Below are positions 2,863 to 22,226 of a stretch of DNA of 64,000 nt, piece after piece. Every line of letters starts with the position of its first letter. The stretch's first letter is position 1. The translations under genes were made by a program, and so were the position numbers. Under the pieces are notes generated by a model. That model was not told the DNA's origin, did not search any database, and saw only the letters and a list, made by a program, of their open reading frames with translations. The stretch is from contig JBAYVP010000002.1 in the NCBI GenBank assembly GCA_041674485.1, positions 9,897 to 73,896 on the forward strand. Direction: 5' to 3'. Source of the DNA: Sulfuricellaceae bacterium (GTDB taxonomy: Bacteria; Pseudomonadota; Gammaproteobacteria; Burkholderiales; Sulfuricellaceae).

Positions 2863-2884
2863 GTTCATGCGGGCTAACTGAATC

Positions 2885-3577: not shown

Positions 3578-3590
3578 CTCAAGTTTGGTA

Positions 3591-5103: not shown

Positions 5104-6093
5104 GTGAAAAAAGTAGCTTTTTTTTGGATAATTTTCAGCAGTTTTTTATGCTCCTCCTCCTGGGGCGCTGAAACCTTTCAATCCTTCAAAATACCCACAG
5201 AATTTACCTTGCCAACAAGAATTGCCATCGACAAAACAGATACCGTTTGGTTTGTTGCGTCAAACTTTCATAAAATCGGCCGGTTTCAGCCTGCCCGGGG
5301 TATTTTTTCCGAGCACAACATCCCCACCCCCAAAAGCTCTCCCTCGGATATAACTATCAGCAACACCGGCAAGGTGTGGTTTACCGAGTCAAATTCTAAC
5401 CAGCTCGGCGTTCTCGACCCCGCCTCGCTGACCTTCAAGGAATACGATATTCCTACAATATCCAGCAATCCCGGCAGAATTGCATCCGACCTCTACGGGA
5501 ATATCTGGTTTACTGAATTTTATGGCAATAAAATTGGCATGTTCGACCCCCGCAAAGAAACCTTCCGTGAATATCCGGTGCCTACGCCCGATAGCCGTCC
5601 GTCCGGCATTGCCGTGGATAAAAAAGGCATAGTATGGTTCCTAGAATCCGAGGGCAATAAACTGGCTCGGTTCAATCCCAAAGATGGTGCGATTCAGGAG
5701 TTTGCTTTACCCGAATCGCACGAGACACCGCGAGATTTAACTATAGACCGTGCCGGGATGCTCTGGTTTGGCGGCCACATAGGGCGAAATTTGATGACAT
5801 TTAACCCCACGACAAAAAAATTCAAATCCTTTCTCTTGCCCAATAACGGCGCAATTGAAAGCTTGGCCGTGGGGATGAATGGAAAAATATACTGCACCCT
5901 CCTGACCAGCAGCAAGATCGCCGTGTTTGACACGGCAACCCACGCATTTCTGGAATTGGACGTGGGCGTGGGTAAGAGCAAACCCAATGGCATCAGCTCT
6001 GATTCAAAGGGAGATATCTGGTTTACTGATACGGATAAAAATACCCTGATCAAATTGGATGCTCGTATGGCAGCCAAACTATGGGTAAAATAA
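5104..6093 (+). CDS. Exported 7-bladed beta-propeller, paralogue of 3591-4913 (Vgb-like repeats)
   Basis: GTG start after AAGGA. Signal peptide MKKVAFFWIIFSSFLCSSSWGA. Repeats DTVWFVA, GKVWFTE, GNIWFTE, GIVWFLE, GMLWFGG, GKIYCTL, GDIWFTD, each followed by a (K/Q/R)(I/L)G/A-x-F/L-(N/D/Q)P-type motif. Confidence 0.7.
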   Translation: MKKVAFFWIIFSSFLCSSSWGAETFQSFKIPTEFTLPTRIAIDKTDTVWFVASNFHKIGRFQPARGIFSEHNIPTPKSSPSDITISNTGKVWFTESNSNQLGVLDPASLTFKEYDIPTISSNPGRIASDLYGNIWFTEFYGNKIGMFDPRKETFREYPVPTPDSRPSGIAVDKKGIVWFLESEGNKLARFNPKDGAIQEFALPESHETPRDLTIDRAGMLWFGGHIGRNLMTFNPTTKKFKSFLLPNNGAIESLAVGMNGKIYCTLLTSSKIAVFDTATHAFLELDVGVGKSKPNGISSDSKGDIWFTDTDKNTLIKLDARMAAKLWVK

Positions 6094-6148
6094 TGCGGGC
6101 AGAGTACTGGAAATTGATCGGTATCTTGCTGTCAACGATAGGTAGAAT

Positions 6149-6670
6149 ATGAAAAAATATGGATGGGTAGTGGGTTTATTTATTTTGGTAATCGTTGCTG
6201 CGGTTGGCGCAGTAGCCATTCCTAACCCGTTAAGTGTGCAGATACTGACCGAAGCCAAGTACCGGGGCTATCTCCCCTATACCACTGACGAGGCTGTTAC
6301 CCTTGCCTACAAGCGCTGCACCACCTGCCACCCCGCTGACAAAATGCTCAAATACTGCTCTCGCTGCGGCCCGCCCTTTATTGTCGTTTCTCAATCCATG
6401 AAAAAATACACGGAATTGATGAACGAGAAAGGCGGCAACTTTAAGCCGTTCTCCGATGCGGAGACGGTTGCAATTACACAGGTCTGGAACGGCTTGGTCG
6501 GAAATTGGGAGCCGGATTGGGGCACGAAAGACATTAAGAAACTCTTGCAAGGCGATCAGGCGCTGATTCGTTTGGCTGAAACGCCCATAGAGCAAAGACC
6601 CATAGAAGTGGCGCTGAAAAACAAGCAAGCGCCAGGTTCGCATAAAGAGGACAGAAAAACCGTTCCCTAA
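6149..6670 (+). CDS. Membrane-anchored putative monohaem cytochrome c
   Basis: N-terminal TM WVVGLFILVIVAAVGAVAI, then YKRCTTCHPADKM (CxxCH) and a second Cys pair CSRCG. No further family recognised. Confidence 0.5.
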   Translation: MKKYGWVVGLFILVIVAAVGAVAIPNPLSVQILTEAKYRGYLPYTTDEAVTLAYKRCTTCHPADKMLKYCSRCGPPFIVVSQSMKKYTELMNEKGGNFKPFSDAETVAITQVWNGLVGNWEPDWGTKDIKKLLQGDQALIRLAETPIEQRPIEVALKNKQAPGSHKEDRKTVP

Positions 6671-7065: not shown

Positions 7066-7521
7066 TTATTTGGCTTTGTATTTACACATACAGATACTGT
7101 TCCTGACATATTGAACAATTTGTTTTATCTCTGCATCGGTAAAAGTTTCTTTCCAGCTCGGCATAGCCTCGGAAAGCCCCACCGCAACGCCACCGGATTT
7201 GACAACCTTAAAAAGGAACTCATCAGTGCGCGCCGATAGCAGCTGGGCATCGTTCAAATTTCGGGCCTTTAATCCTTCCCCAAGCGTATCTGCCAAAGGG
7301 CCATCCCCTTTCCCGGTATCCCCATGGCAAGGCGAACAATTTCCAATATAGTTGTCCTTACCGGCATTCCCGGTGTACGTTCCAGTATTGACAGGGTCTA
7401 TCTCTATATGGGAACGATTCCTATCTTTCTTTAACGGTTCTGCCGCAAATCCTGCACCGGCAAAAACCATGATGCTCAAGCCCAGAGCTAGGGATATTAC
7501 CCTCACTCGCAAGTTTTTCAT
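7066..7521 (-). CDS. Class I c-type cytochrome (monohaem, exported)
   Basis: Signal peptide MKNLRVRVISLALGLSIMVFAGAGFA. CSPCHGDTGKGDGP haem motif and a distal AMPSW Met region. Confidence 0.8.
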   Translation of the reverse strand: MKNLRVRVISLALGLSIMVFAGAGFAAEPLKKDRNRSHIEIDPVNTGTYTGNAGKDNYIGNCSPCHGDTGKGDGPLADTLGEGLKARNLNDAQLLSARTDEFLFKVVKSGGVAVGLSEAMPSWKETFTDAEIKQIVQYVRNSICMCKYKAK

Positions 7522-7669
7522 TTGCCCTCCTTACTTTTCAAACATTCAGCCTTCGGATCAGATCACAGGACTTTTGAAGCGTTGCTCATTCTATAACTAT
7601 ACGTAGCCTGCACTCATCCAACCCATTACGCACTCACGCACTTGCAAACGCGCCCTCCGCTTACCAGCG

Positions 7670-9127
7670 CTATTCAAGAGCCGCATCCATTGATTCCAGC
7701 GAATATGCAGTTTTTGCGCCCGACTGCTGCGCTTCCTCGCGCCGCTTTCTTTCAACGGAGGGCCAGCATTGCGCTCCCAGGATACGATCCGCCACGGCAT
7801 GCCCGCAGACCAGGCGATCGCGCACCGACACCCCGCCCCGGTAGTTGGCCTCGAGATGAAGGCTGGGAATATGTTGCAAACGCGCCGTGATTGCCTGCAT
7901 GCGCGCCTGGTAGGCGCCGTGATACGCGGGCAGCGCCTCGCAGTGCCTGTCGATGCGCACCATCTCCGGGTCGGATTTTAAATCCATGAGCGGGCGCAGT
8001 GTTCTGAATGTCTCATCCACGAGGCGTCCGTCGTCCCAATCCGCCACATTGGGAGCGCGCGCCCCACCGAGATAAGAGGTCAGCAGGACTTTACCCGGAG
8101 GTGCCCGATCGGGAAACAGGGCGCTCATCCACAGATTGCCCGTCAGAGTTCCACTTTCTCCTTTGGGCGCGAGGAACCCGGTGCCATCCAGCGGATGTCC
8201 CACCGCGTCGCGCGCCATCCCGGCATGCACGACATTCACCGGTGCGTAACCAATGCCACGCAACAATTCAGCCAACTCTTTGTCCAGCGGATTGACCAGT
8301 GCAGCAGCAGCAGGTGCGGGCGTTGCCACGATCACATGGCAGGCTGACACGGTGCGCTGCCCGTGTGGCGTTGCCGCTACAGCTTGCCAGCCCTCCCGCT
8401 CGCGCACCAGTTCTTGCGCGGTATGGCCGGTGCGCAAATTGATTCCGGGAGCCTGTGCCAGCGCCTCCACCAAGGTAGCCATGCCGCCACGAAAGGAAAA
8501 AGTGTCGGTAGTGCTGGCCGTGCTGCGGCGTAATACACGGTTAACCAGCACTCCCGCTCCGATGCTGCCGTAGCGCTGCTCCAAAGCCATCAGGCGCGGC
8601 AAAACGGCAGCGGCACTGGCCTGATCCGCATCTGCGGCCAGCGTCCCGGCAACGAAAGGCTCCATGGCTTTTTCCAGCACTTCACGGCCAAGACGACGCG
8701 TGATGAATTCGCTGACCGATTCTTCGCTCCGCCCGCTGGAGAAGATGAACGGTTCTGCCAGCAGGCGCAATTTGCCGCGCAGGCTCCACAAGGGTGAAAC
8801 CACCATGGAACCCAAACGCATGGGCAGTGCTTTCAGACGCCCCTTGTGCAACAGGTAACGGCGCGCCTCGGCGCCAGGCAAGCGGGCGGTTTTTGCCGAT
8901 TCCAGCCCGGCCTCGCGCATCAGCTCCGCCACTTCGGGACGGAAATTCAACACCATAGATGCGGCGCGTTCGGTGAGATAGCCGTCCTGCCGGGTGCTCA
9001 TGATCTTGCCGCCCGAGCGCTCGCTGGCCTCCCATACCTCTACCGAAAGGCCGCTGCGCGCCAGCCACCAGGCGGAAGCCAAGCCTGAAATACCGCCACC
9101 GATAATGAGTACGTCAACTTTATTCAT
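7670..9127 (-). CDS. FAD-dependent protoporphyrinogen/coproporphyrinogen oxidase-like protein (HemY/PPOX family)
   Basis: MNKVDVLIIGGGISGLASAWWLARSG...EASERSGGKI dinucleotide-binding motif at the N-terminus. Overall length and C-terminal GGVSVRD block are typical of HemY-type amine-oxidase-fold enzymes. ATG 9127 is preferred over GTG 9193 because it puts the GxGxxG motif at the N-terminus. Confidence 0.7.
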   Translation of the reverse strand: MNKVDVLIIGGGISGLASAWWLARSGLSVEVWEASERSGGKIMSTRQDGYLTERAASMVLNFRPEVAELMREAGLESAKTARLPGAEARRYLLHKGRLKALPMRLGSMVVSPLWSLRGKLRLLAEPFIFSSGRSEESVSEFITRRLGREVLEKAMEPFVAGTLAADADQASAAAVLPRLMALEQRYGSIGAGVLVNRVLRRSTASTTDTFSFRGGMATLVEALAQAPGINLRTGHTAQELVREREGWQAVAATPHGQRTVSACHVIVATPAPAAAALVNPLDKELAELLRGIGYAPVNVVHAGMARDAVGHPLDGTGFLAPKGESGTLTGNLWMSALFPDRAPPGKVLLTSYLGGARAPNVADWDDGRLVDETFRTLRPLMDLKSDPEMVRIDRHCEALPAYHGAYQARMQAITARLQHIPSLHLEANYRGGVSVRDRLVCGHAVADRILGAQCWPSVERKRREEAQQSGAKTAYSLESMDAALE

Positions 9128-9200
9128 CGCTATGCTGCTGACTTGTGTTTTATTCAATCTGGCGTAGCTGCTCAGGTCAAACGATTTGCTCACAGAACAA

Positions 9201-9264
9201 CCACAACGCCAGTCCCTTACCCATGGAAGTAGGGAAGGTGAAAAACTGCCGCACCTGAGTAGTT
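9201..9264. repeat. REP family R1, short form (CAACGCCAGTCCCTT..GGAAG..GGGAAGG..GCCGCACCTGAGTAGT)
   Basis: Shares the CAACGCCAGTCCCTT / GGGAAGG / CTGCCGC.CCTGAGTAGTT blocks with 28932-29124, 41546-41797 and 47275-47369. Confidence 0.7.
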
Positions 9265-9280
9265 ACAATCGGGCGGAATT

Positions 9281-11347
9281 TTACTTGTTTGCCTTGAGTT
9301 GCGCCTTCATTTTTTCGAGCAAATCCTGACCCAGCAGATCGCCGGGATTTTCCCGTGCAGCAACAAAATTTTTGATGGTATCAAAACGCTTGTCGGCTTC
9401 GGGATTGTCCTTGAGGCGCGGCACGCGATCGCGCGCAATCTCGTAGGCATCGAAGCTCAATTCCTGCATTCCGAACCCCTTCATGCGCTGCACCGCGCGC
9501 ATCATGGCGTTATTGCGGAAGCGCGTCAGGTCGCTGGAAGTAATGCGCGCCAAACCTTCCTTGCGCGCGTTGAATTCGGCGGCTTTTTTGATGCCCGCGC
9601 GGTTGAAGTCGGGCGCGGACAATACGCGCGCCAAGGCATCCTCGTCCCATTCCACGCCGCCGGTCAGTTGCGCGATGGCCGCCTCGACATCCACTCTCTC
9701 AACGGTGGCGGCGCGGCGTTTTTGGGTGAAGCTTTCTGCGGCACCTTCCAGAGCAGGCTCAACAAACATGCGCACCTGTGGCGCTTTTTCGGCTAGGAAC
9801 GCCGTGAGCATTTGATCAGATTCATCCGTCCACGAAAAACTGCGACCGGGTGGCTGTTCCGATTCCAGCCTGTCCAACAGCTTGATATTGACTTCCAGTC
9901 TGCCCTCGGAACGCGCGACATCTTCGGCAATCGCGCGCACCCCTTCCTGCAGGAAAGCGGGCATGGCCGCAAGGCGCTCGCGCGCCTGCTCGCTCCACGG
10001 CAACGTGGCAGCAGAAGCTTGGCCTGCCGCCGATGATGCGGCTTGCAGGTTTGCGTCTCCTGCTGCGCCAGATTTCATATCGGGTCGCGGCGGCCCGCCA
10101 TTGCCGAAGCGTTTGGCGGACAAAGTTGCCAAATGCTCTTCCGTCACCACATGCAAGCCAAGATCATGCACATAGCTTTCCGCGCGTTTCTTGACCATCT
10201 TGCGCAGGAAGGAGGGAACACGCGACAGGCGCTTCTCCGCCTCTTCACTCCAGGACAGCGTTTCAGTTTGCTCGGCCAGCGGCTCGATGACGGCGGCTCC
10301 CTCGGGTACATAAACGCACCAGGGATCGGTATCCATCAGGCTGTCGCCGAGGGCGAGGGGTCGCGCGCGGCAACCGCCGCACAATTTCCGGAATTCGCAA
10401 CTGCCGCACTTGCCTTGCAGCCTGGGATTGCGCAATGCCTGAAAGGTAGGCGATTGATTCCAGATGTCCCAAAATTTAGCGTCGCGGATGTTGCCTTCTT
10501 CATCGGGAATATACGGGCAGGCCGTCACGCCGCCTTCCGGGGTGATGCGGCAATAATGGATGCCGGCCAGACAACCGCCGCCCTCGTATCCGGCGGCACG
10601 GGTGAGCGTCGATTGCGGGTTGCGCTGATAGGCGATGCGCTTGTAATGGGGAGCGCAGCGGGCGCGGATCAGCAAATCCCGGCTCTGCTCTTGCGCCGCC
10701 ACCAATTGGTTGAGCACCCGCTCATAAGTGATGGGACTGATATCCGACATGGATTCGCCGCGACCGGTACACACCAGGAAGAACACGTTCAGCACCCGCG
10801 CCCCGGAAGCCCGAGCAAAATCTATCATGCCCGGCACTTCGTCGGCATTGGATTCGGTGACGGAGAAATGGATCTGGAAGGGCATGCCGTGGCGCTTGCA
10901 GGCCTCAATGCCCTGCATGGTTTTCTCCCACGCGCCCGACAACCCGCGGAAGGCATCGTGCTTTTCGGGGTCGAGAGAATCGACGCTGATACCTGCGCCC
11001 ATCGCGCCGGCAGCCTTCAGCGATTGCACGCGCTTATCGGTAAGCGCCACGCCGTTTGTCCCAACCACCATGGCAAGGCCGCGTCCGGTACCATGCGCTA
11101 CCAGTTCCTCCAGATCGCCACGCATCATCGGTTCACCGCCGGTGAGCACCACCATGGTTTCCGTGCTGCGTGCCGCAATGTCGTCCAGCAGGCTGCACAC
11201 CTCCACCGTGGTGAGCTCGTTCCTGTCGCCATGCTTCATGGTTTCCGCATCCATGTAGCAGTGGGCGCAGGCAAGATTACAGCGCTTGGTCAGATTGATG
11301 GCGAGCAGAAACAGGCCGTTTGCATCGGCGGTGCGAGATACATCCAT
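9281..11347 (-). CDS. Radical SAM/SPASM enzyme (NirJ/AhbD-like core) fused to three or four PCP_red-like (BchB C-terminal-like) domains
   Basis: CNLACAHCY (CxxxCxxC) and GGEPMMR. SPASM Cys cluster GGGCLAG...ACPY...GKCGSCEFRKLCGGCRARP. Then repeated W-S/T-x-E-A...VP-x-F modules (LSWSEEAEKRLSRVPSFLRKMVKK; LPWSEQARERLAAMPAFLQEGVR; FSWTDESDQML; VEWDEDALARVLSAPDFNRAGIKK). Start moved to ATG 11347, which overlaps the upstream stop (TAATG); the longer track ORF would overlap the upstream gene by 214 nt. Confidence 0.8.
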   Translation of the reverse strand: MDVSRTADANGLFLLAINLTKRCNLACAHCYMDAETMKHGDRNELTTVEVCSLLDDIAARSTETMVVLTGGEPMMRGDLEELVAHGTGRGLAMVVGTNGVALTDKRVQSLKAAGAMGAGISVDSLDPEKHDAFRGLSGAWEKTMQGIEACKRHGMPFQIHFSVTESNADEVPGMIDFARASGARVLNVFFLVCTGRGESMSDISPITYERVLNQLVAAQEQSRDLLIRARCAPHYKRIAYQRNPQSTLTRAAGYEGGGCLAGIHYCRITPEGGVTACPYIPDEEGNIRDAKFWDIWNQSPTFQALRNPRLQGKCGSCEFRKLCGGCRARPLALGDSLMDTDPWCVYVPEGAAVIEPLAEQTETLSWSEEAEKRLSRVPSFLRKMVKKRAESYVHDLGLHVVTEEHLATLSAKRFGNGGPPRPDMKSGAAGDANLQAASSAAGQASAATLPWSEQARERLAAMPAFLQEGVRAIAEDVARSEGRLEVNIKLLDRLESEQPPGRSFSWTDESDQMLTAFLAEKAPQVRMFVEPALEGAAESFTQKRRAATVERVDVEAAIAQLTGGVEWDEDALARVLSAPDFNRAGIKKAAEFNARKEGLARITSSDLTRFRNNAMMRAVQRMKGFGMQELSFDAYEIARDRVPRLKDNPEADKRFDTIKNFVAARENPGDLLGQDLLEKMKAQLKANK

Positions 11348-13170
11348 TATTGTCCCGCGTCTTGAGGGTTCCCGTCCTGGGAGTTCTGGGCTTTTTTGCC
11401 GAAGCCAAACGGGCAACCGCTCTTGGCAGCCGGCTCGCTTTTTCCCATCATGGTTTTTTCCATTTCGCCGCGCGCCTGCTTGAGGCCGTTTTCTGCCACG
11501 TCCAGAGTGACTTCGGCGTGGCCATTTTGCCGGGCAAAATTCTCGATGCTCTGCTTGCACCGGTCGCGCATGAAACCCTCAGGCACCCGCATCAGGCGCG
11601 CCAGCGCGGCGGCCTGCCAATGAATTTCGGATGAACCGGGTAGCCCCGCCGCCGCTGCGGGCTGGGCGCTATCCGGCGCGTCGGTGTCGAGGAACGATTT
11701 AATATGCTTGGCTTCCACCGCGTCACACTTTTCCTGACGCGCTTTCTTCTCGGCGCGCATACTGAGATTGCCGCGCACCGAAAGGTCTTCGACGGTGCGC
11801 AACAGCGCAACCGCCTCGTCGGACCAGCGCATGACCTCTTCCGCCGCTGGCTTGCGCTTCAATTCTCCCGCATCGTAGGCCGCGACGATTTCCCCCATAG
11901 CCTGCTCCGCATGATTCGGCATGAGCTGCGCGGTCGCTTCGTCCACAATCTTCTGGGTGATGACGGTGTGGCCATGTTCCTGCGCATAGCGCATGATGGC
12001 CATGCGCGCCATGTTGCGGACGAAGGAAGGCACCCGCTCCATCCGTGCTTCGGCCTCATGCGTCCAAGAGGTAGTGACGCCCGACACGACATCTATTTTC
12101 GGCTGGTATTCGCGCATGCTGAGCAAAATGGCGCAGTCCACATTTTCCAGCAAATGCTCGCTATTGCCGCCGATGTCGAGTTCATCATCGGCATGAATGC
12201 CCAACTTGCCGACGATCAGCAAGGAGGGCTTGATTTTTTTGACATACTTCTCGATGGCATCGTGAGGCTTGCCATCCAGCAGCTCGGTTTCTATTTCAAC
12301 GCCAAAATCCCCGGCGATGGATCGGGCGACAGCCAAATGGCCGTCATAGATTTTTGCCAACCCAGAGTCTATGATCTCTTCGTGCAGCTTTTCCTGATCC
12401 TTGAATTTGAATACCTTGCCTGCCTCTTCGGACAGCACGCCGGCAATCCGGTTAAAGGCAACATAGTGGTAATAGGGATCGAAGGCGGCAATAACCTTGA
12501 CCGGAACCTGCCAAGTTTTGCCTAGCGCCAGCCCGGTGAGCAAGCCACCGTACGACTTGGCTGAGCCGTCCACCGCGACGACTATCGGGCCTTTCTTGAT
12601 CGCGCGCTCGGGTTCCTTGATAACCAGCGTATCAATGGCCGAACGCCGCGCCACCCGTCGGCACACGGTACCCAACCGGCTCCCTTTTATCGCGCCTAGC
12701 CCTAGCGCTCCCATAATGAGCAGATCGTATTTTCCGGTATTCGTTTCCCGCGTAAGTTCGCGGTAATTTTTTCCTTCAAGCGAGCTGCGCTTGAAGTCGA
12801 TGCCAAGCCGTTCGCATTCGTTGGCAGCCTGATCGAGATAAGAATCGGTGATGATCGACAAGCCGCGTGTGATCAGGTCGTCATGCACATCCCGCTGCCG
12901 CTCCAACTCCTGTTCTTGCCGGAACTGTTCTGGCAGGCCGCCTTCCATCTGGCGAAAACGCATGTCATGCAGCTTGGCGGCATAGACATGGCTACCGGTA
13001 ATCACTGGCGTATCCACCAGACCCGCCAGTTCGGTGGCGCTCTGCATAGCGGCATTGGCATGGTCTGATGAATCCAGTGCCACCAGAATACGTTGATAAA
13101 AACCGGTGTCTAGCGATGGGTGAGACTCTTCGGCAACGGCCAAAGAAACTTGGGACGTCATGTGATGCAC
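11347..13170 (-). CDS. Tandem universal-stress-protein (USP) domains fused to three PCP_red-like domains
   Basis: Two USP-like halves (ILVALDSSDHANAAM...LLIMGALG; IVVAVDGSAKSYGGL...SLLIVGKLG). Then TSWTHEAEARMERVPSFVRNMARMAI, MRWSDEAVALLRTVEDL and IHWQAAALARLMRVPEGFMRDRCK modules. Confidence 0.75.
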   Translation of the reverse strand: MHHMTSQVSLAVAEESHPSLDTGFYQRILVALDSSDHANAAMQSATELAGLVDTPVITGSHVYAAKLHDMRFRQMEGGLPEQFRQEQELERQRDVHDDLITRGLSIITDSYLDQAANECERLGIDFKRSSLEGKNYRELTRETNTGKYDLLIMGALGLGAIKGSRLGTVCRRVARRSAIDTLVIKEPERAIKKGPIVVAVDGSAKSYGGLLTGLALGKTWQVPVKVIAAFDPYYHYVAFNRIAGVLSEEAGKVFKFKDQEKLHEEIIDSGLAKIYDGHLAVARSIAGDFGVEIETELLDGKPHDAIEKYVKKIKPSLLIVGKLGIHADDELDIGGNSEHLLENVDCAILLSMREYQPKIDVVSGVTTSWTHEAEARMERVPSFVRNMARMAIMRYAQEHGHTVITQKIVDEATAQLMPNHAEQAMGEIVAAYDAGELKRKPAAEEVMRWSDEAVALLRTVEDLSVRGNLSMRAEKKARQEKCDAVEAKHIKSFLDTDAPDSAQPAAAAGLPGSSEIHWQAAALARLMRVPEGFMRDRCKQSIENFARQNGHAEVTLDVAENGLKQARGEMEKTMMGKSEPAAKSGCPFGFGKKAQNSQDGNPQDAGQ

Positions 13171-13283
13171 CTCTTTGCTTTAATCTTTGGGAACACTGAT
13201 ACGCAGAATCGCGAATTATAGGGCAAATTCAGATGCCGGATATTTGAACAAGAATATTATTTTTTGCCGCCACAAAACAAGAA

Positions 13284-13320
13284 AGGTATATCCCTGGAAT
13301 TTCTTCCGCAGGATATACCT
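13284..13320 (-). terminator. Probable rho-independent terminator after the NosZ-like/cytochrome c unit
   Basis: Perfect 10 bp inverted repeat AGGTATATCC-N17-GGATATACCT, 88 nt downstream of the 13409 stop. It is followed on the minus strand by UUCUUGUUUUGUGG. Confidence 0.5.
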
Positions 13321-13408
13321 CGCTCAAACTATCTCTTGCTGCTTCTGTATTTCCAGCCTACTTACACACCATAACCTTCAGGTGAGCTTTCGGCTTGAAA
13401 AATATTTA

Positions 13409-14371
13409 TTACTTAACCTTCACTGCGACTTCTGTCGGCTTCTTTCTGTTGCCGCCATCTACATATCCGCCGCCGACCAGTTCTGAACCAGGAGCACGCC
13501 CGGTCATTTCGGATTCAATCGTCTCTTGCAACTCCTTGAAATCTGCGCTCTTCGAAGCATTGAGTGCATCTACATCGCCCTTGATCGGCTTAAAGGTAGA
13601 TTTAGGGTTAAGGTATGCTTCCACGCTGGTGGGTGGCGGTACATCCTGCATCGCGCGGATAAAGGCAATAATGTCCCAAATGTCCTGATCCTGCAGCACG
13701 TTGCCCCAATTAGGCATGGACGAAGACAGCGATACTTGCTCGCCGCCACCCTTGATCACCGCATACAACTCAAGGTTGGTCTTCTTGTTCATGTAGTCGC
13801 CACGAGTCAATGTTCTTGGGCGCGGGTTCAATTCGGAAGCACTGGGGCCGTCACCATGCATCAACCAACCGTGGCAGGCGATACAGTAGGAGTAGTAGTA
13901 AGTCTTGCCATGGTTCGGGTCAGCACCAGCAACCAGCGTTGCGCCAAATTTTGGCGACCATTGGTTCGTCCACTGATCGTACACGCTCTTATCCGTCACA
14001 CCATCGGAAGCAGGAGCTTTTACGCGATCCCACAATTCTGTCTTGAGACCGCCTTTAGCAGCTCCGCCATAACCGCTGTCCGTTTTGAAGGTCTTGGTGT
14101 CGGAGTTGCTGCGCTTGCCTACACCCGTCAAATAATCGAACGGTGCGATACCATAGGTACTGCCGCCTTTACCTTGCTCCATGTCATCGCCTTCTTTCAG
14201 AAACGCGGCCGATGCTTTTTTCGCTTCATCTTCAGTTACGGTAGGGCACTCTACCTTTTGCCCGCCGGCGGTACAACGCTTCTCCGGTGCAGCAAAAGAT
14301 GACGCACTTCCCCACATCATGCCCAAACTTGTCACTGCGATCAGGCCTATTTTCAACTTGGCATTCTTCAT
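13409..14371 (-). CDS. Exported 320 aa monohaem c-type cytochrome
   Basis: Signal peptide MKNAKLKIGLIAVTSLGMMWGSASSFA. One CIACHGWLMHGDGP motif and a distal SSMPNW. RBS AGAGGGAG lies upstream. Sits directly downstream of the NosZ-like gene. Confidence 0.75.
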   Translation of the reverse strand: MKNAKLKIGLIAVTSLGMMWGSASSFAAPEKRCTAGGQKVECPTVTEDEAKKASAAFLKEGDDMEQGKGGSTYGIAPFDYLTGVGKRSNSDTKTFKTDSGYGGAAKGGLKTELWDRVKAPASDGVTDKSVYDQWTNQWSPKFGATLVAGADPNHGKTYYYSYCIACHGWLMHGDGPSASELNPRPRTLTRGDYMNKKTNLELYAVIKGGGEQVSLSSSMPNWGNVLQDQDIWDIIAFIRAMQDVPPPTSVEAYLNPKSTFKPIKGDVDALNASKSADFKELQETIESEMTGRAPGSELVGGGYVDGGNRKKPTEVAVKVK

Positions 14372-14449
14372 TTTTTAATTCTCCCTCTTTAGACCACCCC
14401 CGCAAGGGGATGGCCGGTTATTCATCCGTATCTGGGCGCAAAGAGTCAA

Positions 14450-17157: not shown

Positions 17158-18690
17158 TCAGGCCGCAGGTTTCTTGGCAGCGCTACGCGACCACCACAAC
17201 AGCCCTGCCACAAACAGTCCCGCGACCAGCAACGCCAGAACAATAGGCTTGGAACCGGTAGCCGGCTTCAACAACAGCCAATACCAGGTAGTCATGGTGT
17301 GCTTTGAGCCTTTCTCACTATTATTGCTGCCATCCCAAGCGGCAAAAGCAACCGGAATGAATTTACCCTCGACAAACTGAATATCCTTCTCGGGTGCGGA
17401 AGTAGTGAGCGGCCTGGTTATCAGAGCCTTCCAGGTACCATCGCTATAAATCGCCTTGGCCTTGAGCCCGACCCCGGTCGCATCGCGTTTCTCAATCGCC
17501 TTAAAACCTTTGCTGGTCATCAGACCGAGAGTTTCTGCCGCCTCAGTAGTGCCGCTCTTCCAGTGCCAGATGTTGACCGGATGCGCGTCATCTCCCATGC
17601 CGAAATAAGGCTTTTGCATTTCCTTGGGAATCACGACGGGCAGTTGCACCGCGACGCCGTCTTCCGCAATCGGCGCATCGGCCAGCTTACCCGCGCTATC
17701 ATCCCCCGGAATGCTCTTGGTGCGGTCATCCCACTCCAGCAGCATCGCAATCGACTTGCTGTTATACATCGCGCGCACCGTAATGGAGTCATTGGAAGGC
17801 GTGAAATAACGCTCCTCGCCGATGATTTGCGGAACCAGAGCGAAAGTGGTCGGGGTAGACTTTTCCCAGCGTTCATCTTCCGGCGTAGCGGGCAATTCGC
17901 CCTCCACCATGTCCGCCTTGACCACGGTGTTTTCCGCATTAACCAGTTTATCGGTCTTGGCTAATGACGCCACATAGTTAGCTACATGCCAAATTTCTTC
18001 GGTCGTGAGCTTCTTTTTACTCGCTGGATCGATGAAGGATGGCATCGCAGTACCAGGGATACCGGTAGAAACCCGCGTAAAGATGTCCTTCGGATCATTG
18101 CTGCCACGGAAAGTCCAAGGCTTGGTCAGATTGCGCGGCCAGGTACGCTCGCCGTTATCTCCTTTGAGCCGCTTGCTGGCGCTGCCCTTGCCCGACTTGC
18201 CATGACATTCCACGCAGCGGTCGCCATCCTCGAACAACTTCTTGCCCTTCTCGATACTCTCGGCAGAGCTTTTGACCTGCGAGCCGAAGTCGACCTGCTT
18301 GGCAGGAGGCTTGTCGAAACCTGCAAAGGTTTTGACATAAGCCACCAAGTCCCACATATCCTGCTCGTTCAGCAAGTCGCTCCAACCCGGCATGGCGGTG
18401 CCCGGCATACCATCGCGTATCATGCGATAGATGTCGTCATCATTGGGCGTCATATCTGCAAAATCGGATGTTTTGATCTTGTAGTTGCCGGAAGTGAAAT
18501 CCCGTGGCGGCGGATTGAGACGGTCTTTGGCCGCACCGTCACCCGCACCCTCCGCACCGTGACACCAGGTGCAGCGTTTGTCATAGATTATCTTGCCCTT
18601 GTCGGCTGCACCCGGTTTCGCCGAGGCTGACCCCGCCATAAACAGCGCAGCACAAAAGGTTAGGAAAGCCAGTTTTTTTACAGAACTCAT
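17158..18690 (-). CDS. Dihaem cytochrome c fused to an EB_dh (EbdC/NxrC/DdhC-type haem-b) domain and a C-terminal TM anchor
   Basis: Signal MSSVKKLAFLTFCAALFMAGSASA (ATG 18690). CTWCHG and CVECHG motifs. EB_dh-like block ITVRAMYNSKSIAMLLEWDDRT...DGVAVQLP...YFGMGDDAHPVNIWHWKSG. C-terminal helix IVLALLVAGLFVAGLLWW. Confidence 0.75.
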   Translation of the reverse strand: MSSVKKLAFLTFCAALFMAGSASAKPGAADKGKIIYDKRCTWCHGAEGAGDGAAKDRLNPPPRDFTSGNYKIKTSDFADMTPNDDDIYRMIRDGMPGTAMPGWSDLLNEQDMWDLVAYVKTFAGFDKPPAKQVDFGSQVKSSAESIEKGKKLFEDGDRCVECHGKSGKGSASKRLKGDNGERTWPRNLTKPWTFRGSNDPKDIFTRVSTGIPGTAMPSFIDPASKKKLTTEEIWHVANYVASLAKTDKLVNAENTVVKADMVEGELPATPEDERWEKSTPTTFALVPQIIGEERYFTPSNDSITVRAMYNSKSIAMLLEWDDRTKSIPGDDSAGKLADAPIAEDGVAVQLPVVIPKEMQKPYFGMGDDAHPVNIWHWKSGTTEAAETLGLMTSKGFKAIEKRDATGVGLKAKAIYSDGTWKALITRPLTTSAPEKDIQFVEGKFIPVAFAAWDGSNNSEKGSKHTMTTWYWLLLKPATGSKPIVLALLVAGLFVAGLLWWSRSAAKKPAA

Positions 18691-18709
18691 AATTATTCCC
18701 AATCGCAGA

Positions 18710-19492
18710 TTATTCATTTGCCCACGACCTTGGCCGTCTGCCCGTGTAGTCATACAGGTACAGGATAACTTTCCATATCTCATCCTCGGTCAAGAAGTTC
18801 TGCCAGATGGGCATGGATGAAATCCACGGCGCTGCCTCAGCAGGCAAGCCCGGGCCGCCGGTGGCGATACGCCAGAACAGGAAAGATTCCTGCAACTGCG
18901 CGATGGTGCCCACGTCCTGGAAATTGAGCGGCGTGGGGTTCAGACCCGATGCATAAGGTCCCTTGCCATCCAATTTGTCGCCGTGGCAATACTGGCAGTT
19001 TTGAATGTAAACATTGCCGCCCGCCTTGACTAGCTCGGCAAACTTTGCCAGATCTTCCTTCTCGAGTTTGCGATAGGGATTTTCCAGCTTGGTCAGGTCA
19101 AAGCTCTTGCCATACGCCTTAAACTTGTTGGGCGGCGCGGGGTGGATGGTGCGCAGCTCCACCGGTGCCTCGAAACTGGGCATCAGACTCGAGTAGGTGT
19201 AGTAGCCAGCCAGCAGCGGCACAATCACAAATACCACATTGCGCAGCATTTTCTTGGAGGGATCCTCGACCAAAGCCTTGATGGGACCCACCAGCTCCTG
19301 TGCCCCTTCCTCAGTGAAAGTAAATACCATCACAACCCCGGCCACCACGAACACCATATACATGGTAAGCAGGCTCTTGGGGATCAACTGTCCCAGAATC
19401 ACGTCGAAAACCAGGATGAAGCTGAAAAATACCCCCAGTATGACCAGGGCGAGTTGCAACAAACGGGGAATGCGTCTTTTCTGTGTTGTCAT
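18710..19492 (-). CDS. Membrane-bound monohaem cytochrome c (three N-terminal TM helices)
   Basis: TM helices LLQLALVILGVFFSFILVF, MYMVFVVAGVVMVFTF and VVFVIVPLLAGYY, then NCQYCHGDKLDGKGP and a distal SSMPIW. Confidence 0.75.
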   Translation of the reverse strand: MTTQKRRIPRLLQLALVILGVFFSFILVFDVILGQLIPKSLLTMYMVFVVAGVVMVFTFTEEGAQELVGPIKALVEDPSKKMLRNVVFVIVPLLAGYYTYSSLMPSFEAPVELRTIHPAPPNKFKAYGKSFDLTKLENPYRKLEKEDLAKFAELVKAGGNVYIQNCQYCHGDKLDGKGPYASGLNPTPLNFQDVGTIAQLQESFLFWRIATGGPGLPAEAAPWISSMPIWQNFLTEDEIWKVILYLYDYTGRRPRSWANE

Positions 19493-19494
19493 GA

Positions 19495-20304
19495 TTATTT
19501 CAACCCTGCCATATAATTAACCAGCAACTCAAGCTCTTGCGCTTTCAATTGCTCCCCATAGGTCTTAGGCATCATGCCCCCGGCAAATCCTTTTGCGATA
19601 ACCGCATCGGGATCGAGCAGCGCCTGGCGCAAATATTCCTTGCCCTGCTTTGCACCAATCTTGGACAGATCGGGCCCCAGCGCGCCAGTCTGATCCAGAA
19701 TTTTATGGCACATGCCACAGGTATACTTGGCGATGACCTCTTCAGCCGTTTTTAGCGGAGCGGCTTCTTCTGCCTTTGGCGCCTCTGCACCAGCGGCGGG
19801 CATGGCTGGAATAACGACCGTCACTTCGGCACCACCCGAGTCCTGGAGATAGGCGATAACAGCGGCAACTTCGGCCTCGTTCAGACCGATCCCACCACCC
19901 GTCACGTCCGGCATCGGGCTTTCGGTATCGTTGGTTCCCGCTTTACCAAATCCAGAAACCACATAGGCCGAAGGCTTAACCATCGCCTCGTGGATATACT
20001 CCTCGACCGTTTTTGCCGTACCTTTGTAATTGGGGCTCTTCATATGCTCATCTGCCTTCGCTCCGATCGTGTCGAGCATTGGCGCCCGGCCCATCGAGTT
20101 ATGGCACAGCGTACAAGTCCCCTTGCCGTTATATATCTTGCCGCCCAGCGCGATGAACTGATCCATAGTCATCGCGCCGAGATCCAGCTTCTCCTCTACG
20201 GGGGGCGGCGCGGGTTTAATCGTCGGGATGCCGAAATTCGAATACCCCCAGAATGCACCCACCATCAAGATACTGAAAATGGAAACCTTAAGAAAATTGG
20301 TCAT
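19495..20304 (-). CDS. Dihaem c-type cytochrome, membrane-anchored or exported
   Basis: CTLCHN and CGMCHK motifs. ATG 20304 forms an ATGA overlap with the stop of the bd-like gene (20301-20303). The longer TTG start at 20319 is less likely. Confidence 0.8.
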   Translation of the reverse strand: MTNFLKVSIFSILMVGAFWGYSNFGIPTIKPAPPPVEEKLDLGAMTMDQFIALGGKIYNGKGTCTLCHNSMGRAPMLDTIGAKADEHMKSPNYKGTAKTVEEYIHEAMVKPSAYVVSGFGKAGTNDTESPMPDVTGGGIGLNEAEVAAVIAYLQDSGGAEVTVVIPAMPAAGAEAPKAEEAAPLKTAEEVIAKYTCGMCHKILDQTGALGPDLSKIGAKQGKEYLRQALLDPDAVIAKGFAGGMMPKTYGEQLKAQELELLVNYMAGLK

Positions 20305-22226
20305 GCTTGTTCCTTCCAATAACCTTTTGCAACCACATGTTTGCCACTGATCGTGCTCAACCAGAACACAAAGATGACCATGGCCATGAATATGAGCGTA
20401 CCAGTCGATACGATGTTGGCCGCATAACCCAGATCCGGCGTAAAGGCATCCGGAGAATTATCGCGGAATACGTTGGACACATGCCAGTGCTGGCGGATGG
20501 CAGAACGGACATAGCCCATCAGCCCCATCAGCCAGGTGAAGGACACCGCCAGCAGAAACAGCGCGTACTGCGAACGGTTGGGCATACGCCCCCAGTGCAG
20601 CGGCGCCACTTCCTTCGCACCCTTGTACATGAACGAGTCAAGCACCAAGCTGAGAATGATGACAACCAAGGTGGTCAGAACCTGCGGTATGGAGGCCGCA
20701 ACCTTGTACACCGTATTGGTGAAATAACCGTAATAGATACCCAGCACCAGGATGTTGAGTGCGGCCGTAACAAACAGGGCGATCTGCGCCGCGTTGCCTG
20801 CTTTGACCCAGGAAACGGTAGCAATTTTATTGGCGCGCCGGTAATACAGGAAACTCAAGAAAGTGCCCAAAAGCAAAAAGTTCACCGCCGTGTTTTTGGC
20901 CGGCATGATGCCGAACACCCCCAGATATTGGTGGTACGGTCCGCCCAAGCTCTTGAGTTCTGAATTGGTCAGCACCAGCGTGTGCGGCGTGAACCACACC
21001 AGGAAAGCAGCCACCAGGACAATGGCGATATATTTGATCTTGGGGTTGTAGCGATAAGCGCCATCGCTGCGCCCTATACCACACCAGAGATAATAGTTGG
21101 CCGACAGGAACAGGGCGCCGATCAGTACGGCCTGGATGATGAACAGCCAGGCAAACGCGCCGCCCATCAGGGTGATACCCATTTGCTGGCTATAGGCATA
21201 TATTTCTGCGGTGAGATAGTAGCCCGCGAAAGGCAACGGCAACAGCGCCGCTATCGCGATGAAGTTGGCGTTGTAACCCATCCAGTCATAGTGGGCGCGC
21301 TCTTTTGCATTTTTGGCGCTAAGAAACTTGAAGGCGGCATAGGCACCCACAACCGAACCGCCATAAGCCACGTTGGCGACCACCCGGTGTATGTTGATCG
21401 GATTCCACAGGAAGTTGTGAAGCGCAGCCCAGGTATCGCCATGGAACACACCCGCCGGATCCAGGCCCGCCGGGCTCATCATGAAAGTCGTCCATGCGTT
21501 GGCCAGGAACATCAGCAAGCAACCGACCGCATTGAGCAGCAAACCAAAAGTCAGGTGTACCCACTTCTTGTTGCCACCCTGGAGCCAGTGCCAGCCATAA
21601 TAATAAATATACAAGACCGCGCTCTCGGCAAAGAACAGCAGCGCATACGCCCACATGCTTTCCTTGAAGACTGCGGCCATATATTTGAATAAATCCGGGT
21701 AGAACAGGATCAGACCGAAGGATAGCAAGCCGCCCAGAAGCGCGGTGAGCGAGTAGGCGGTGATACTGACCTTGATGAACTCGTAAGCCATGTTATCATA
21801 GCGCTCATCCCGTGTCCACATACCGATGGCCTCGATGATGAACACAAACATCGGTACCGCCACGACAAACGCACCAAACCACAGATGCAACTGCGCTACC
21901 AGCCATACTGCCACCCGTGAATTCACCCCTTGAATCTTGGGGTAATCCGCCTCGGTCAATTTTGGCACGGGGATGGAAACCCCCGCCGCCGCATCTGGAG
22001 CGGCATCTGCCTTGGCCGCAGCAGCAGCGTGTGCAGGTGCGGGTGCGGCGGGTGCCGCTGCGGATGCTGTCGCTGCGGCAGGCGCTTCAGCAGCCGCAGG
22101 CGCGACCGCAGACGCTGCTGCCTCGGATGCGTTCGCGACAGGCGTGAAGGCAGGCAGCATAAACATGGCGAAAACCGCCAATAAAAATGCCCCGCCGATT
22201 AATCTTATATTATTTCTTGTTAGCAA
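20301..22226 (-). CDS. Cytochrome bd subunit I-like (CydA-like, 'bd-like oxidase') polytopic membrane protein with an Ala/Pro-rich N-terminal linker
   Basis: Collinear with CydA: VAQLHLWFGAFVVAVPMF (His19 region), FFAESAVLYIYYYGW (FLESTF..FFFGW), VHLTFGLLLNAVGCLLMFLANAWTTFMMSP, NIHRVVANVAYGG (His186 region). No cydB follows. N-terminal low-complexity stretch ASEAAASAVAPAAAEAPAAATASAAAPAAPAPAHAAAAAKADAAPDAAAG. Confidence 0.8.
   Translation of the reverse strand: MLTRNNIRLIGGAFLLAVFAMFMLPAFTPVANASEAAASAVAPAAAEAPAAATASAAAPAAPAPAHAAAAAKADAAPDAAAGVSIPVPKLTEADYPKIQGVNSRVAVWLVAQLHLWFGAFVVAVPMFVFIIEAIGMWTRDERYDNMAYEFIKVSITAYSLTALLGGLLSFGLILFYPDLFKYMAAVFKESMWAYALLFFAESAVLYIYYYGWHWLQGGNKKWVHLTFGLLLNAVGCLLMFLANAWTTFMMSPAGLDPAGVFHGDTWAALHNFLWNPINIHRVVANVAYGGSVVGAYAAFKFLSAKNAKERAHYDWMGYNANFIAIAALLPLPFAGYYLTAEIYAYSQQMGITLMGGAFAWLFIIQAVLIGALFLSANYYLWCGIGRSDGAYRYNPKIKYIAIVLVAAFLVWFTPHTLVLTNSELKSLGGPYHQYLGVFGIMPAKNTAVNFLLLGTFLSFLYYRRANKIATVSWVKAGNAAQIALFVTAALNILVLGIYYGYFTNTVYKVAASIPQVLTTLVVIILSLVLDSFMYKGAKEVAPLHWGRMPNRSQYALFLLAVSFTWLMGLMGYVRSAIRQHWHVSNVFRDNSPDAFTPDLGYAANIVSTGTLIFMAMVIFVFWLSTISGKHVVAKGYWKEQA

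Follow-up and report, generated by a model that had tools for sequence, protein, structure and literature searches.

A PCP_red-bearing sister family of AhbD, its tandem universal stress partner, and a possible late-haem step linked to bd-like respiratory clusters

Introduction

AhbD, the radical S-adenosylmethionine (SAM) enzyme that decarboxylates Fe-coproporphyrin III, is known in coproporphyrin-pathway organisms that have no other Ahb enzymes, where it operates with HemY-type oxidases (PMC13564367); both AhbD and HemQ are said to be largely absent from phyla, Proteobacteria among them, in which the family described here occurs (PMC5095920). We analysed a relative of AhbD encoded on a 64,000-nucleotide stretch of a Sulfuricellaceae bacterium (GenBank assembly GCA_041674485.1, contig JBAYVP010000002.1, positions 9,897 to 73,896 of the forward strand), which as a whole is called the window below and is numbered from its first letter. 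Four open reading frames (ORFs), all on the minus strand, span 7066-13170 and encode a tandem universal stress protein (USP) with PCP_red domains, a radical-SAM/SPASM enzyme that also carries PCP_red domains, a HemY-like oxidase, and a cytochrome c.

Gms, the glycerol monoalkyl glycerol tetraether (GMGT) synthase, has an N-terminal extension of about 100 amino acids (COG4001) that is a lipid-binding domain (PMC11214058), and bd-like oxidases accompanied by cytochromes c have been described for Nitrospirota and others, in a paper whose main text contains neither 'radical SAM' nor 'universal stress' (bioRxiv 10.1101/2021.01.16.426971). A search of the full-text literature for the domain, the architecture, and the genomic context found nothing on the family treated here, which we rate as a radical-SAM family sister to AhbD, distinguished by a new accessory domain, a partner dedicated to it, and a genomic association that is also new. 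The reading that we prefer, and hold to be about evenly balanced between right and wrong, is that the enzyme carries out an oxygen-independent late-haem step, coupled in Proteobacteria to a porphyrinogen oxidase, that serves the adjacent respiratory complexes.

Results

A PCP_red-bearing sister clade of canonical AhbD

The radical-SAM/SPASM-PCP_red protein (9281..11347; 688 amino acids when read from the ATG of a TAATG junction) matches Radical_SAM (1e-21), SPASM (1.5e-07), and PCP_red (4.7e-29) in Pfam. Its Radical_SAM core (residues 17-178; 10814..11299) contains the CxxxCxxC motif at residues 23-30, within RCNLACAHCY, and C23, C27, and C30 are nearly invariant in the family alignment. The SPASM/auxiliary-cluster region (residues 259-344; 10316..10573; Pfam SPASM at 259-318) is likewise marked by invariant cysteines, the full invariant set of the family being C231, C259, C277, C314, C317, C323, C326, and C344.

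The initial annotation had described the core as NirJ/AhbD-like, and this placement in the tetrapyrrole branch is borne out by both model scores and phylogeny. Against NCBIfam, the window enzyme scores 312.3 bits on NirJ2 and 310.8 bits on AhbD (TIGR04545), with a cut-off of 500 for both, and no more than 148 bits on models of the peptide-maturase type (GeoRSP, WgkB, mycofactocin, PqqE); no HemN or HemW model is among its best NCBIfam matches. Ten family members score 277-329 bits on the AhbD model, compared with 500-578 for canonical AhbD proteins from the same genome scan, and the AhbC-type neighbour at locus L060 reaches 729 on the AhbC model. Core identity is 38-41% to canonical AhbD and 28% to AhbC. 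In a neighbour-joining tree of 71 cores with 100 bootstraps, all PCP_red-bearing enzymes form one clade, sister to canonical AhbD in 100/100 bootstraps, with AhbC outside. Assignment of the window enzyme to canonical AhbD was considered and is excluded by its score of 310.8 bits relative to the cut-off of 500 and by the separate sister clade. The next relatives without PCP_red are AhbD/NirJ proteins fused to sirohaem decarboxylase. Fusions joining PCP_red or the enzyme itself to other haem enzymes were also sought; the larger relatives proved to be these AhbD/NirJ-sirohaem decarboxylase proteins, which have no PCP_red.

No recognition domain of the RRE (RiPP recognition element) or PqqD-like kind was found by Pfam, the enzyme core beginning at residue 13, and the alignment shows no N-terminal extension of the Gms type in the window enzyme or most family members. 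The PDB holds no close structure, the best match being PqqE at 86 bits. Among 1.84 billion representative sequences searched, the long form makes up one 50% cluster with a few relatives that have 2-4 modules, and a much larger set of 410-460 amino acids has the same core and exactly one PCP_red. The window protein has a 100%-identical record named 'radical SAM protein [Sulfuricellaceae bacterium]', and homologues of both it and the USP protein at 70-96% identity occur in Gallionellaceae, Sulfuricellaceae, Casimicrobiaceae, and some Gammaproteobacteria. Neither protein is claimed by any NCBIfam model, and homologues are named in databases either generically ('radical SAM protein', 'universal stress protein') or wrongly ('PqqE').

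Arrays of PCP_red modules shared with a tandem-USP partner

The repeats in both proteins were initially likened to the C-terminal domain of protochlorophyllide reductase subunit B, and profile searches agree, with PCP_red (PF08369) E-values of 1e-29 to 1e-30 per protein and scores of 103.5 and 100.6 bits for the two window proteins relative to a gathering threshold of 32.5; stand-alone and fused PCP_red homologues at other loci score 43-162 bits. We delimited the modules with a profile hidden Markov model (HMM) built from the first module of 15 family members. In the radical-SAM protein, module 1 (residues 363-411; 10115..10261; i-E 8e-25; PDB 2kru, E 3.1e-06) is the only one present in every family member, with W366, A370, and P378 invariant. 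It is followed by module 2 (448-496; 9860..10006; i-E 2.1e-11), a degenerate module that retains only the SWT start (503-550; 9698..9841; i-E 0.17) and is kept in family members P0077 and P0242, and module 4 (564-612; 9512..9658; i-E 3.2e-09), so that an early count of three or four resolves into three confident modules and one degenerate one. The C-terminal extension (613-688; 9284..9511) has no known domain and aligns with P0077, P0242, P0246, P0247, and P0259. Zetaproteobacteria (L011) encode everything from module 2 of the enzyme through its C-terminal extension in a separate 318-amino-acid gene, which argues that the PCP_red arrays are separable units.

The partner protein (11347..13170; 607 amino acids) matches Usp over two stretches (Pfam 4.6e-26) and PCP_red (5.9e-30), and its Usp score of 92.5 bits relative to a Pfam cut-off of 24 marks it as a tandem PF00582 protein; the probable start of its gene is the ATG at 13161, which AAAGAGG precedes, and not the GTG at 13170. 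USP domain 1 (residues 25-185; 12616..13098) has, as read from the translation, a G-2x-G-9x-G-T nucleotide-binding motif, GALGLGAIKGSRLGT, and weak PDB matches to the USPs Rv1636 (1tq8) and 5ahw, which we take to be cAMP binders. USP domain 2 (about residues 190-350; 12121..12603) is the second Pfam Usp stretch, with a UspE-like NCBIfam match at residues 278-350; the ATP-type motif G-2x-G-9x-G(S/T) is present in domain 1 and takes a variant form in domain 2. The three PCP_red modules first noticed by eye in this protein were all recovered by our HMM: module 1 (366-414; 11929..12075; i-E 1.6e-18; Pfam 369-412), a diverged module 2 (446-493; 11692..11835; i-E 2.4e-05), and module 3 (515-561; 11488..11628; i-E 2.2e-12), which matches ChlB of T. 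elongatus at 451-502. USP-PCP_red homologues with 80-96% identity are widespread in metagenome-assembled genomes (MAGs) of Gallionellaceae and Sulfuricellaceae.

After module 3, a low-complexity linker contains a conserved G-x-C-P-F motif (SGCPFGF, with Cys586; 11401..11421). The motif recurs in the linkers of USP-PCP_red proteins at L004, L005, L010, L012, L013, L019, and L052, in Beta- and Gammaproteobacteria and Vicinamibacteraceae, and it stands about 25 residues before PCP_red in stand-alone proteins of about 170 amino acids from Poribacteria and Rhodothermales. Stand-alone zinc-ribbon-PCP_red proteins that carry it include those at L025:7350-7850 and L039:10213-10854. The motif resembles the haem-regulatory Cys-Pro motif and could bind haem. 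In place of CPF, non-proteobacterial USP-PCP_red proteins have a rubredoxin-like knuckle pair (RUBY_RBDX, 3.7e-06), which lies between the USP and PCP_red parts at L025:2966-4903 and L041:12287-14701. The protein of SAR324 contains five PCP_red modules, along with a weak HypA-like match.

Carriers of PCP_red in this system are the enzyme, the tandem-USP partner, and, in other phyla, small stand-alone proteins; a profile search with the module retrieved only 11 proteins, small and stand-alone. Outside the module described here, we know of PCP_red only from the tetrapyrrole reductases BchB/ChlB. The BchB matches of the window fall on positions 455-510 of the 512-position model, its extreme C-terminal domain; the helix by which BchB touches protochlorophyllide in trans (398-420; PMC12022308) lies upstream of them. 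The first description of PCP_red as contacting a tetrapyrrole was an assumption that this position does not sustain.

A gene unit conserved across phyla

The TAATG overlap between the USP-PCP_red stop and the radical-SAM start, as first reported, is present in the sequence (caaTAATGgat) and amounts to one base. An identical overlap occurs at the Gallionellales locus L004, judged from gene coordinates, and the two genes are translationally coupled or separated by at most 17 nt in the window, L003, L004, and L005. Between the radical-SAM and HemY-like genes lies an 87-nt spacer (9194..9280) occupied by a repeat of the repetitive extragenic palindromic (REP) type. The initial annotation had placed a REP here, and blastn-short locates further copies of stretches from it within the window, at 28.93-29.12k, 41.54-41.80k, and 47.31-47.37k (25-61 nt, 85-96% identity), although a 26-mer of the intergenic hairpin occurs only once in the window. 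The spacer upstream of the USP gene (13171..13408, minus strand) contains, as read from the sequence, a long hairpin with a T-run at about 13274-13320, which is absent from the output of a simple hairpin scan, and TATAAT at 13215-13220; it probably marks the end of a preceding unit, formed by an N2O reductase gene (nosZ) and a cytochrome c gene, and the start of the triad's own. A class I cytochrome c gene (7066..7521; Pfam) lies downstream of the HemY-like gene, a position that is filled likewise at L004. The USP-PCP_red, radical-SAM-PCP_red, and HemY-like genes would form a single transcription unit, the proteobacterial version of a widespread, uncharacterised module. The initial domain calls for these genes (two Usp, PCP_red arrays, Radical_SAM, SPASM, HemY-type oxidase, cytochrome c) were all upheld by HMM search.

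Neighbourhoods were compared across loci taken from a scan of one genome per species (80 listed), together with gene look-ups, which is not a random sample; ORFs were called by a crude procedure of our own, and genes were recognised with the PCP_red HMM, by phmmer searches from the window proteins, and by clustering of blastp matches. Counts refer to genes within 10 kb and set 58 family loci against 30 canonical AhbD loci by Fisher test. A USP gene, nearly always with PCP_red, is found at 36/58 family loci and 0/30 canonical loci (p 1e-9), so the USP-PCP_red/radical-SAM pair that was first noticed in one genome is a conserved unit. Stand-alone PCP_red genes occur at 23 of the 58 family loci (0/30; p 1.6e-5), the bd-like CydA and/or EB_dh-dihaem cytochrome c cluster described below at 19 (0/30; p 2e-4), and lactonase-type N2O reductase (L-NosZ) at four (0/30; p 0.29). 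When only the 35 family loci of at least 15 kb are counted, the bd-like/EB_dh cluster is present in 16 and the USP gene in 27. At L006 and L048, which have distant family members, a USP gene adjoins the enzyme although that USP has no PCP_red. Several canonical AhbD loci have an adjacent AhbC-type gene of about 400 amino acids; at none of the 58 family loci is there a second radical-SAM gene, of the AhbC type, next to the enzyme, and ahbA/B/C association is accordingly absent. Nor do the recurrent neighbours of these loci include a small ORF conserved beside the enzyme. Clustering with peptide-modifying SPASM enzymes and a nearby precursor gene were named at the outset as what would speak against a tetrapyrrole system; the core scores far higher on AhbD/NirJ2 than on peptide-maturase-type models, and no conserved small ORF recurs beside the enzyme across the 58 loci.

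The family occurs in Beta-, Gamma-, Alpha-, and Zetaproteobacteria, anammox and other Planctomycetota, Nitrospirota, Nitrospinota, Acidobacteriota (Vicinamibacterales), Poribacteria, Methylomirabilota, Rhodothermales/Bacteroidota, Gemmatimonadota, SAR324, Myxococcota, Chloroflexota, and Binatia. The full triad of USP-PCP_red, radical-SAM-PCP_red, and HemY-like genes is seen in Casimicrobiaceae, Gallionellales, and one unassigned MAG. Haem-copper oxidase genes lie near the family in 6-9 loci. In Ferrigenium straubiae, the USP-PCP_red gene diverges from the bd-like cluster and is away from the enzyme, whose gene lies elsewhere with the HemY-like one. Directly downstream of USP-PCP_red there (L090:11930-15277), a protein of the Radical_SAM_C type, two U32 peptidases, and an SCP2 protein are encoded, and we take the U32 and SCP2 genes to be ubiU/ubiV/ubiT-type genes of oxygen-independent ubiquinone synthesis; genes for a cNMP-binding protein and an Mrp/ApbC ATPase come after them.

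Outside Proteobacteria, a recurrent neighbour at 16 loci is an Fe-S carrier ATPase of the Mrp/NUBPL type (ParA 2e-73, with MrpORP the closest model, below cut-off). Its gene (L025:5807-6700, L032:8922-9848, and 14 more) usually sits between the USP-PCP_red gene and the gene for the 170-amino-acid PCP_red protein; by analogy with BchB-type subunits and BchL, PCP_red may dock to this ATPase. Other such neighbours are the zinc-ribbon-CPF-PCP_red proteins of about 170 amino acids, a membrane protein of the CopD/UPF0093 superfamily, a periplasmic 245-amino-acid protein with a copper-site-like motif, and HEAT/PBS-lyase-type repeat proteins. The membrane protein, of 150-180 amino acids, is encoded directly upstream of the radical-SAM gene in Poribacteria (L025:9341-9847 and nine more loci); it scores 32.4 bits on CopD, just over cut-off, and weakly on UPF0093, the HemJ family (20 versus 34), and might be a non-orthologous counterpart of the proteobacterial HemY-like gene. 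Proteins of 245-310 amino acids form a family (cluster 24) beside the radical-SAM gene in Rhodothermales, Bacteroidota, and Nitrospirota (L044:11246-12043, L039:6477-7211, L041:11281-12204, L026:10023-10955), with no match in Pfam, NCBIfam, or PDB; in SAR324 and Nannocystaceae they are fused to a C-terminal PCP_red module. One Binatia MAG (L055) has the module twice, as a mirror-image inverted duplication that meets at about 11.3 kb and comprises bd-like, cytochrome c, USP-PCP_red, Mrp, PCP_red, and radical-SAM genes; the palindromic arrangement may be genuine or may have arisen in assembly.

A HemY-family oxidase next to the proteobacterial enzyme

The HemY-like gene (7670..9193) encodes 507 amino acids as an ORF and probably starts at about 9127 (MNKVDV), as in homologues of 470-484 amino acids. 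The protein scores 238.9 bits on TIGR00562 (cut-off 97.85), matches Amino_oxidase (4.7e-53) and NAD_binding_8, and has IIGGGISG as its N-terminal FAD-binding GxGxxG sequence; it passes the TIGR00562 threshold and not those for carotenoid or squalene desaturases. PDB matches are to the protoporphyrinogen oxidases of Myxococcus xanthus (2ivd, 203 bits) and tobacco (1sez, 184 bits) and to the B. subtilis enzyme (3i6d, 169 bits), and an RRY motif aligns with Arg98 of the tobacco enzyme.

A HemY-like gene directly follows the radical-SAM gene in 14 loci (13 plus L003) and in none of the 30 canonical AhbD loci (Fisher p 0.0035); the tabulated count is 13/58, the L003 gene having been overlooked by our ORF caller. 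All cases are in Alpha-, Beta-, or Gammaproteobacteria or on unassigned contigs, and in Ferrigenium straubiae and Casimicrobiaceae the two genes overlap by 14 nt. The link to HemY that was first drawn from the window alone therefore recurs, often with overlapping genes, in proteobacterial and unassigned loci; it lies outside the core of the module, no copy being found beside the family elsewhere. Besides the HemY-like gene, the 64-kb window has no haem-biosynthesis genes.

The bd-like/EB_dh cluster and the rest of the window

The strongest conserved neighbour of the family is a four-gene cluster (17158..22226, minus strand; Pfam assignments), which had been left unlinked to the USP/radical-SAM pair in the initial annotation. 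It encodes a bd-like CydA homologue of 641 amino acids (20301-22226), two cytochromes c (19495-20319 and 18710-19492), and a fusion of a dihaem cytochrome c with an EB_dh haem-b domain (17158-18783; matched by the NCBIfam model for the DMSO-reductase type II haem-b subunit), and it accompanies the family in more than 10 phyla or classes. The range of the cluster extends from Betaproteobacteria to anammox bacteria, SAR324, Acidobacteriota, Bacteroidota, and Gemmatimonadota.

Between the EB_dh and USP genes of the window lie, on the minus strand, the gene for a clade III (lactonase-type) nitrous oxide (N2O) reductase (14450-16282; NF052460, 750.6 bits, cut-off 700) and that for a 320-amino-acid cytochrome c (13409-14371). 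Because loci without nosZ (such as L048, L074, and L049) have EB_dh directly beside the USP/radical-SAM genes, this pair (13409-16282) looks like a betaproteobacterial insertion. L-NosZ as the functional partner of the module was considered and rejected: it occurs in only 4/58 loci, all betaproteobacterial or Casimicrobiaceae, and appears inserted. The bd-like/cytochrome c/EB_dh cluster may be the electron-transfer partner of the clade III N2O reductase. The plus strand encodes, at 31069-32682, a DsbD_TM-like membrane protein and a SCO1/SenC copper chaperone, 10-15 kb away from the nosZ-like gene; they could serve copper-centre assembly, canonical nos accessory genes being absent from the window.

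The region 400-6670 (plus strand) has two cytochrome b genes (397 and 207 amino acids), three genes without recognised domains (180, 230, and 173 amino acids), and two beta-propellers of the Vgb_lyase/SGL type, a set that recurs in the same order at the Gallionellales locus L004; a hydrothermal-vent MAG (L008) has a 397-amino-acid cytochrome b and a 205-amino-acid protein beside its USP/radical-SAM pair. At the other end, 39633-63958 is a flagellar and glycosylation region (FliD, a 925-amino-acid flagellin, a 998-amino-acid TPR/GT41 protein, a DegT aminotransferase, methyltransferases) in which a HipA-like kinase (43726-45000) and a YhgA-like transposase (46274-47227) are encoded as well; it is free of haem-biosynthesis genes.

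Discussion

In the preferred reading, the enzyme would perform oxygen-independent oxidative chemistry of the AhbD type on a side chain, propionate or acetate, of a tetrapyrrole late in the haem pathway. Four independent lines of evidence point to a tetrapyrrole substrate, though none is proof: the position of the family as sister to AhbD and next to fusions with a sirohaem enzyme, the presence of a domain that we otherwise know only from BchB/ChlB-type reductases, the overlapping HemY-family oxidase in Proteobacteria, and the surrounding genes for haem proteins. PCP_red might act as a shared docking or hand-over domain that gathers the proteins of the module or passes a tetrapyrrole between them, and the nucleotide-binding USP partner would be regulatory or would serve as a scaffold that handles electrons or ligands. 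The product would supply the haem-rich low-oxygen complexes encoded nearby, namely the bd-like oxidase homologue, its cytochromes c, and the EB_dh haem-b protein. What had been annotated as an oxygen-responsive tetrapyrrole system stands in its domains, its AhbD-sister clade, the synteny of the pair, and the HemY link, and we infer the substrate, the product, the parts played by PCP_red and USP, and the oxygen regulation. The low-oxygen theme is strengthened indirectly by Ferrigenium, where USP-PCP_red lies between the bd-like cluster and the ubiU/V/T-like genes, and it is in keeping with the rise at low oxygen of UspA proteins encoded beside electron-transport operons in Nitrospira marina (PMC8115632).

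In Proteobacteria, the downstream HemY-type FAD oxidase could make the pathway self-contained, and it could do so in either of two orders. HemY might oxidise coproporphyrinogen III, after which iron would be inserted and the radical-SAM enzyme would decarboxylate or otherwise modify Fe-coproporphyrin; or the radical-SAM enzyme might decarboxylate coproporphyrinogen III and HemY then oxidise protoporphyrinogen IX. In most Alpha-, Beta-, and Gammaproteobacteria the oxidation of protoporphyrinogen falls to HemJ or HemG, and a coproporphyrinogen oxidase would be missing; to our knowledge only HemY-type enzymes are able to oxidise coproporphyrinogen. For these reasons the confinement of the HemY-like gene to Proteobacteria suggests the coproporphyrin-type order, which we consider slightly more likely. 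The opposite order is weakly favoured by the scores of the HemY-like protein, 203 bits with the protoporphyrinogen oxidase of M. xanthus versus 169 with the coproporphyrinogen oxidase of B. subtilis, together with the retained RRY.

Several observations weigh against this proposal as a whole. Since the enzyme falls below the AhbD equivalog cut-off and outside the AhbD clade, its reaction may differ from that of AhbD. HemY-type oxidases require oxygen, which sits awkwardly next to an oxygen-independent step. Ferrochelatase, ChdC, HemN, and other haem genes are absent from the window and from the 58 neighbourhoods, and the neighbourhood counts rest on at least 80 listed, non-random loci and crude ORF calls. 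PCP_red corresponds to BchB 455-510, apart from the contacting helix, and it has an ill-defined role in dark-operative protochlorophyllide oxidoreductase (DPOR). An AhbD-like core alone is no proof of a tetrapyrrole substrate, because Gms, which is as similar to AhbD as the window enzyme is (36% identity), bridges lipids (PMC11214058). Finally, Proteobacteria normally make haem b without such a branch (PMC5095920), so that plain haem b would be a redundant product. The same redundancy makes a dedicated product plausible, and a tentative, rather improbable version of the proposal is that the module makes or specifically delivers a non-standard haem, for example one that is coprohaem-derived or partly decarboxylated, for the bd-like, EB_dh, and cytochrome c complexes. 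PCP_red with its Cys-Pro-Phe motif would then be a new tetrapyrrole hand-over domain, and Proteobacteria would have imported a HemY-type coproporphyrinogen oxidase to feed the branch because their normal pathway never makes coproporphyrin. The proposed clients would be terminal oxidases or quinol-cytochrome c modules of nitrite oxidisers, anammox bacteria, iron oxidisers, and clade III N2O reducers.

Other explanations dispense with a late-haem reaction. Both PCP_red proteins could be a haem chaperone or insertase that binds finished haem and delivers it to the bd-like, cytochrome b, and EB_dh proteins, as the HemN-like HemW delivers haem to respiratory nitrate reductase and bd oxidase. Synteny in many phyla is with haem-b respiratory clusters and not with haem-biosynthesis genes, and the arrayed small modules and a conserved Cys-Pro-Phe motif, of a type that binds haem transiently, would suit such a role; however, all three sets of cluster-binding cysteines are invariant, as in a working SPASM enzyme, the fold class is that of AhbD/SPASM and not of HemN/HemW, and an overlapping HemY-type oxidase in Proteobacteria implies a porphyrinogen intermediate rather than finished haem, which makes a chaperone unlikely. 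Since most SPASM enzymes modify peptides, the enzyme might instead be a maturase that introduces a cross-link or other modification into a respiratory-complex subunit or small peptide, with PCP_red for recognition. Small ORFs do occur in the clusters (96 amino acids at 16634-16924 in the window, 83-100 at L003 and L004, and 72 after the enzyme at L008), and the synteny is with a protein complex. Yet no small ORF recurs beside the enzyme when all 58 loci are compared, no RRE/PqqD-like domain precedes the core, which begins at residue 13, the window enzyme scores 311 bits on AhbD/NirJ2 as against at most 148 on peptide-maturase models, its family is sister to AhbD, and the HemY linkage would be left unexplained; we regard a maturase as very unlikely.

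The example of Gms, in which an added domain sets specificity on a core 36% identical to AhbD that bridges lipids (PMC11214058), raises the prospect that the AhbD-like core was recruited to a lipid or quinone in a membrane or quinone adaptation to low oxygen, and the Ferrigenium USP-PCP_red gene abuts what we take to be ubiU/V/T-like ubiquinone genes. The added domain here is, however, one that we otherwise know only from BchB/ChlB, the Gms-type N-terminal extension is missing, the adjacent oxidase meets the curated threshold for protoporphyrinogen oxidase and not those for carotenoid or squalene desaturases, and the nearest relatives are fused to sirohaem decarboxylase, all of which leaves a non-tetrapyrrole substrate with a slim chance of being right. 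It is similarly improbable, in our judgement, that the system is mainly regulatory, with USP-PCP_red sensing nucleotides or haem for the respiratory operons and PCP_red shared by domain shuffling between proteins that are not physical partners. Such a division would account for Ferrigenium, where USP-PCP_red stays with the bd-like cluster and the radical-SAM and HemY-like genes are elsewhere, and it would fit the nucleotide-binding motif of USP domain 1 and Nitrospira marina, in which UspA proteins encoded beside electron-transport operons rise at low oxygen (PMC8115632). It is harder to square with USP and radical-SAM genes that show translational coupling or spacers of no more than 17 nt in the window, L003, L004, and L005 and occur together in 36/58 loci across phyla, and with L006 and L048, which keep the USP gene beside the enzyme even when the USP has no PCP_red.

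If the late-haem reading is true, an unrecognised late branch of haem metabolism operates in ecologically central bacteria, including iron-oxidising Gallionellaceae, the nitrite oxidisers Nitrospira and Nitrospina, anammox bacteria, sponge Poribacteria, and soil Acidobacteriota; PCP_red gains a function outside chlorophyll synthesis, and the bd-like oxidase homologues gain a genetic handle. The clade III (lactonase-type) N2O reductase, which was recognised recently, is encoded on this island too, so that the cofactor supply of the island would bear on the physiology of N2O sinks. The prediction would be open to direct test by complementation and anaerobic enzyme assay.

Among known systems, AhbD (TIGR04545) shares with the window enzyme its fold class, the CxxxCxxC motif, and the auxiliary-cluster cysteines of SPASM. 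It differs in that the window enzyme scores below the AhbD cut-off, forms a separate clade, and ends in PCP_red modules (1-4 across the family), and in that the family is never beside ahbA/B/C and is paired with USP-PCP_red and bd-like clusters. The consecutive decarboxylase and oxidase steps of HemN (CgdH) and HemY/HemG/HemJ fit the order of the radical-SAM and HemY-like genes, but the window enzyme is of the SPASM/AhbD type rather than the HemN type, and we know of no SPASM/AhbD-type enzyme that acts on coproporphyrinogen. HemW resembles the family as a radical-SAM-family protein tied genetically to haem-b respiratory enzymes, with possible haem hand-over; it is HemN-like and has no SPASM clusters, whereas the family retains every catalytic cysteine and is coupled to an oxidase in Proteobacteria. 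Gms likewise combines an AhbD-like core with an accessory domain that presumably sets specificity, although that domain is an N-terminal COG4001 in a lipid context, in contrast to the C-terminal PCP_red and the respiratory and haem context here. To the C-terminal domain of DPOR BchB/ChlB (PCP_red, 2kru) the homology is clear, with matches to ChlB 451-502 and to 2kru itself, but in this family PCP_red is free of the nitrogenase-like subunit, is repeated one to five times, and is spread over several proteins of the module. The CydA homologue of the window, for its part, resembles the OR-N/bd-like members of the cytochrome bd superfamily (Murali et al., bioRxiv 10.1101/2021.01.16.426971) in being encoded outside a canonical operon and together with cytochromes c.

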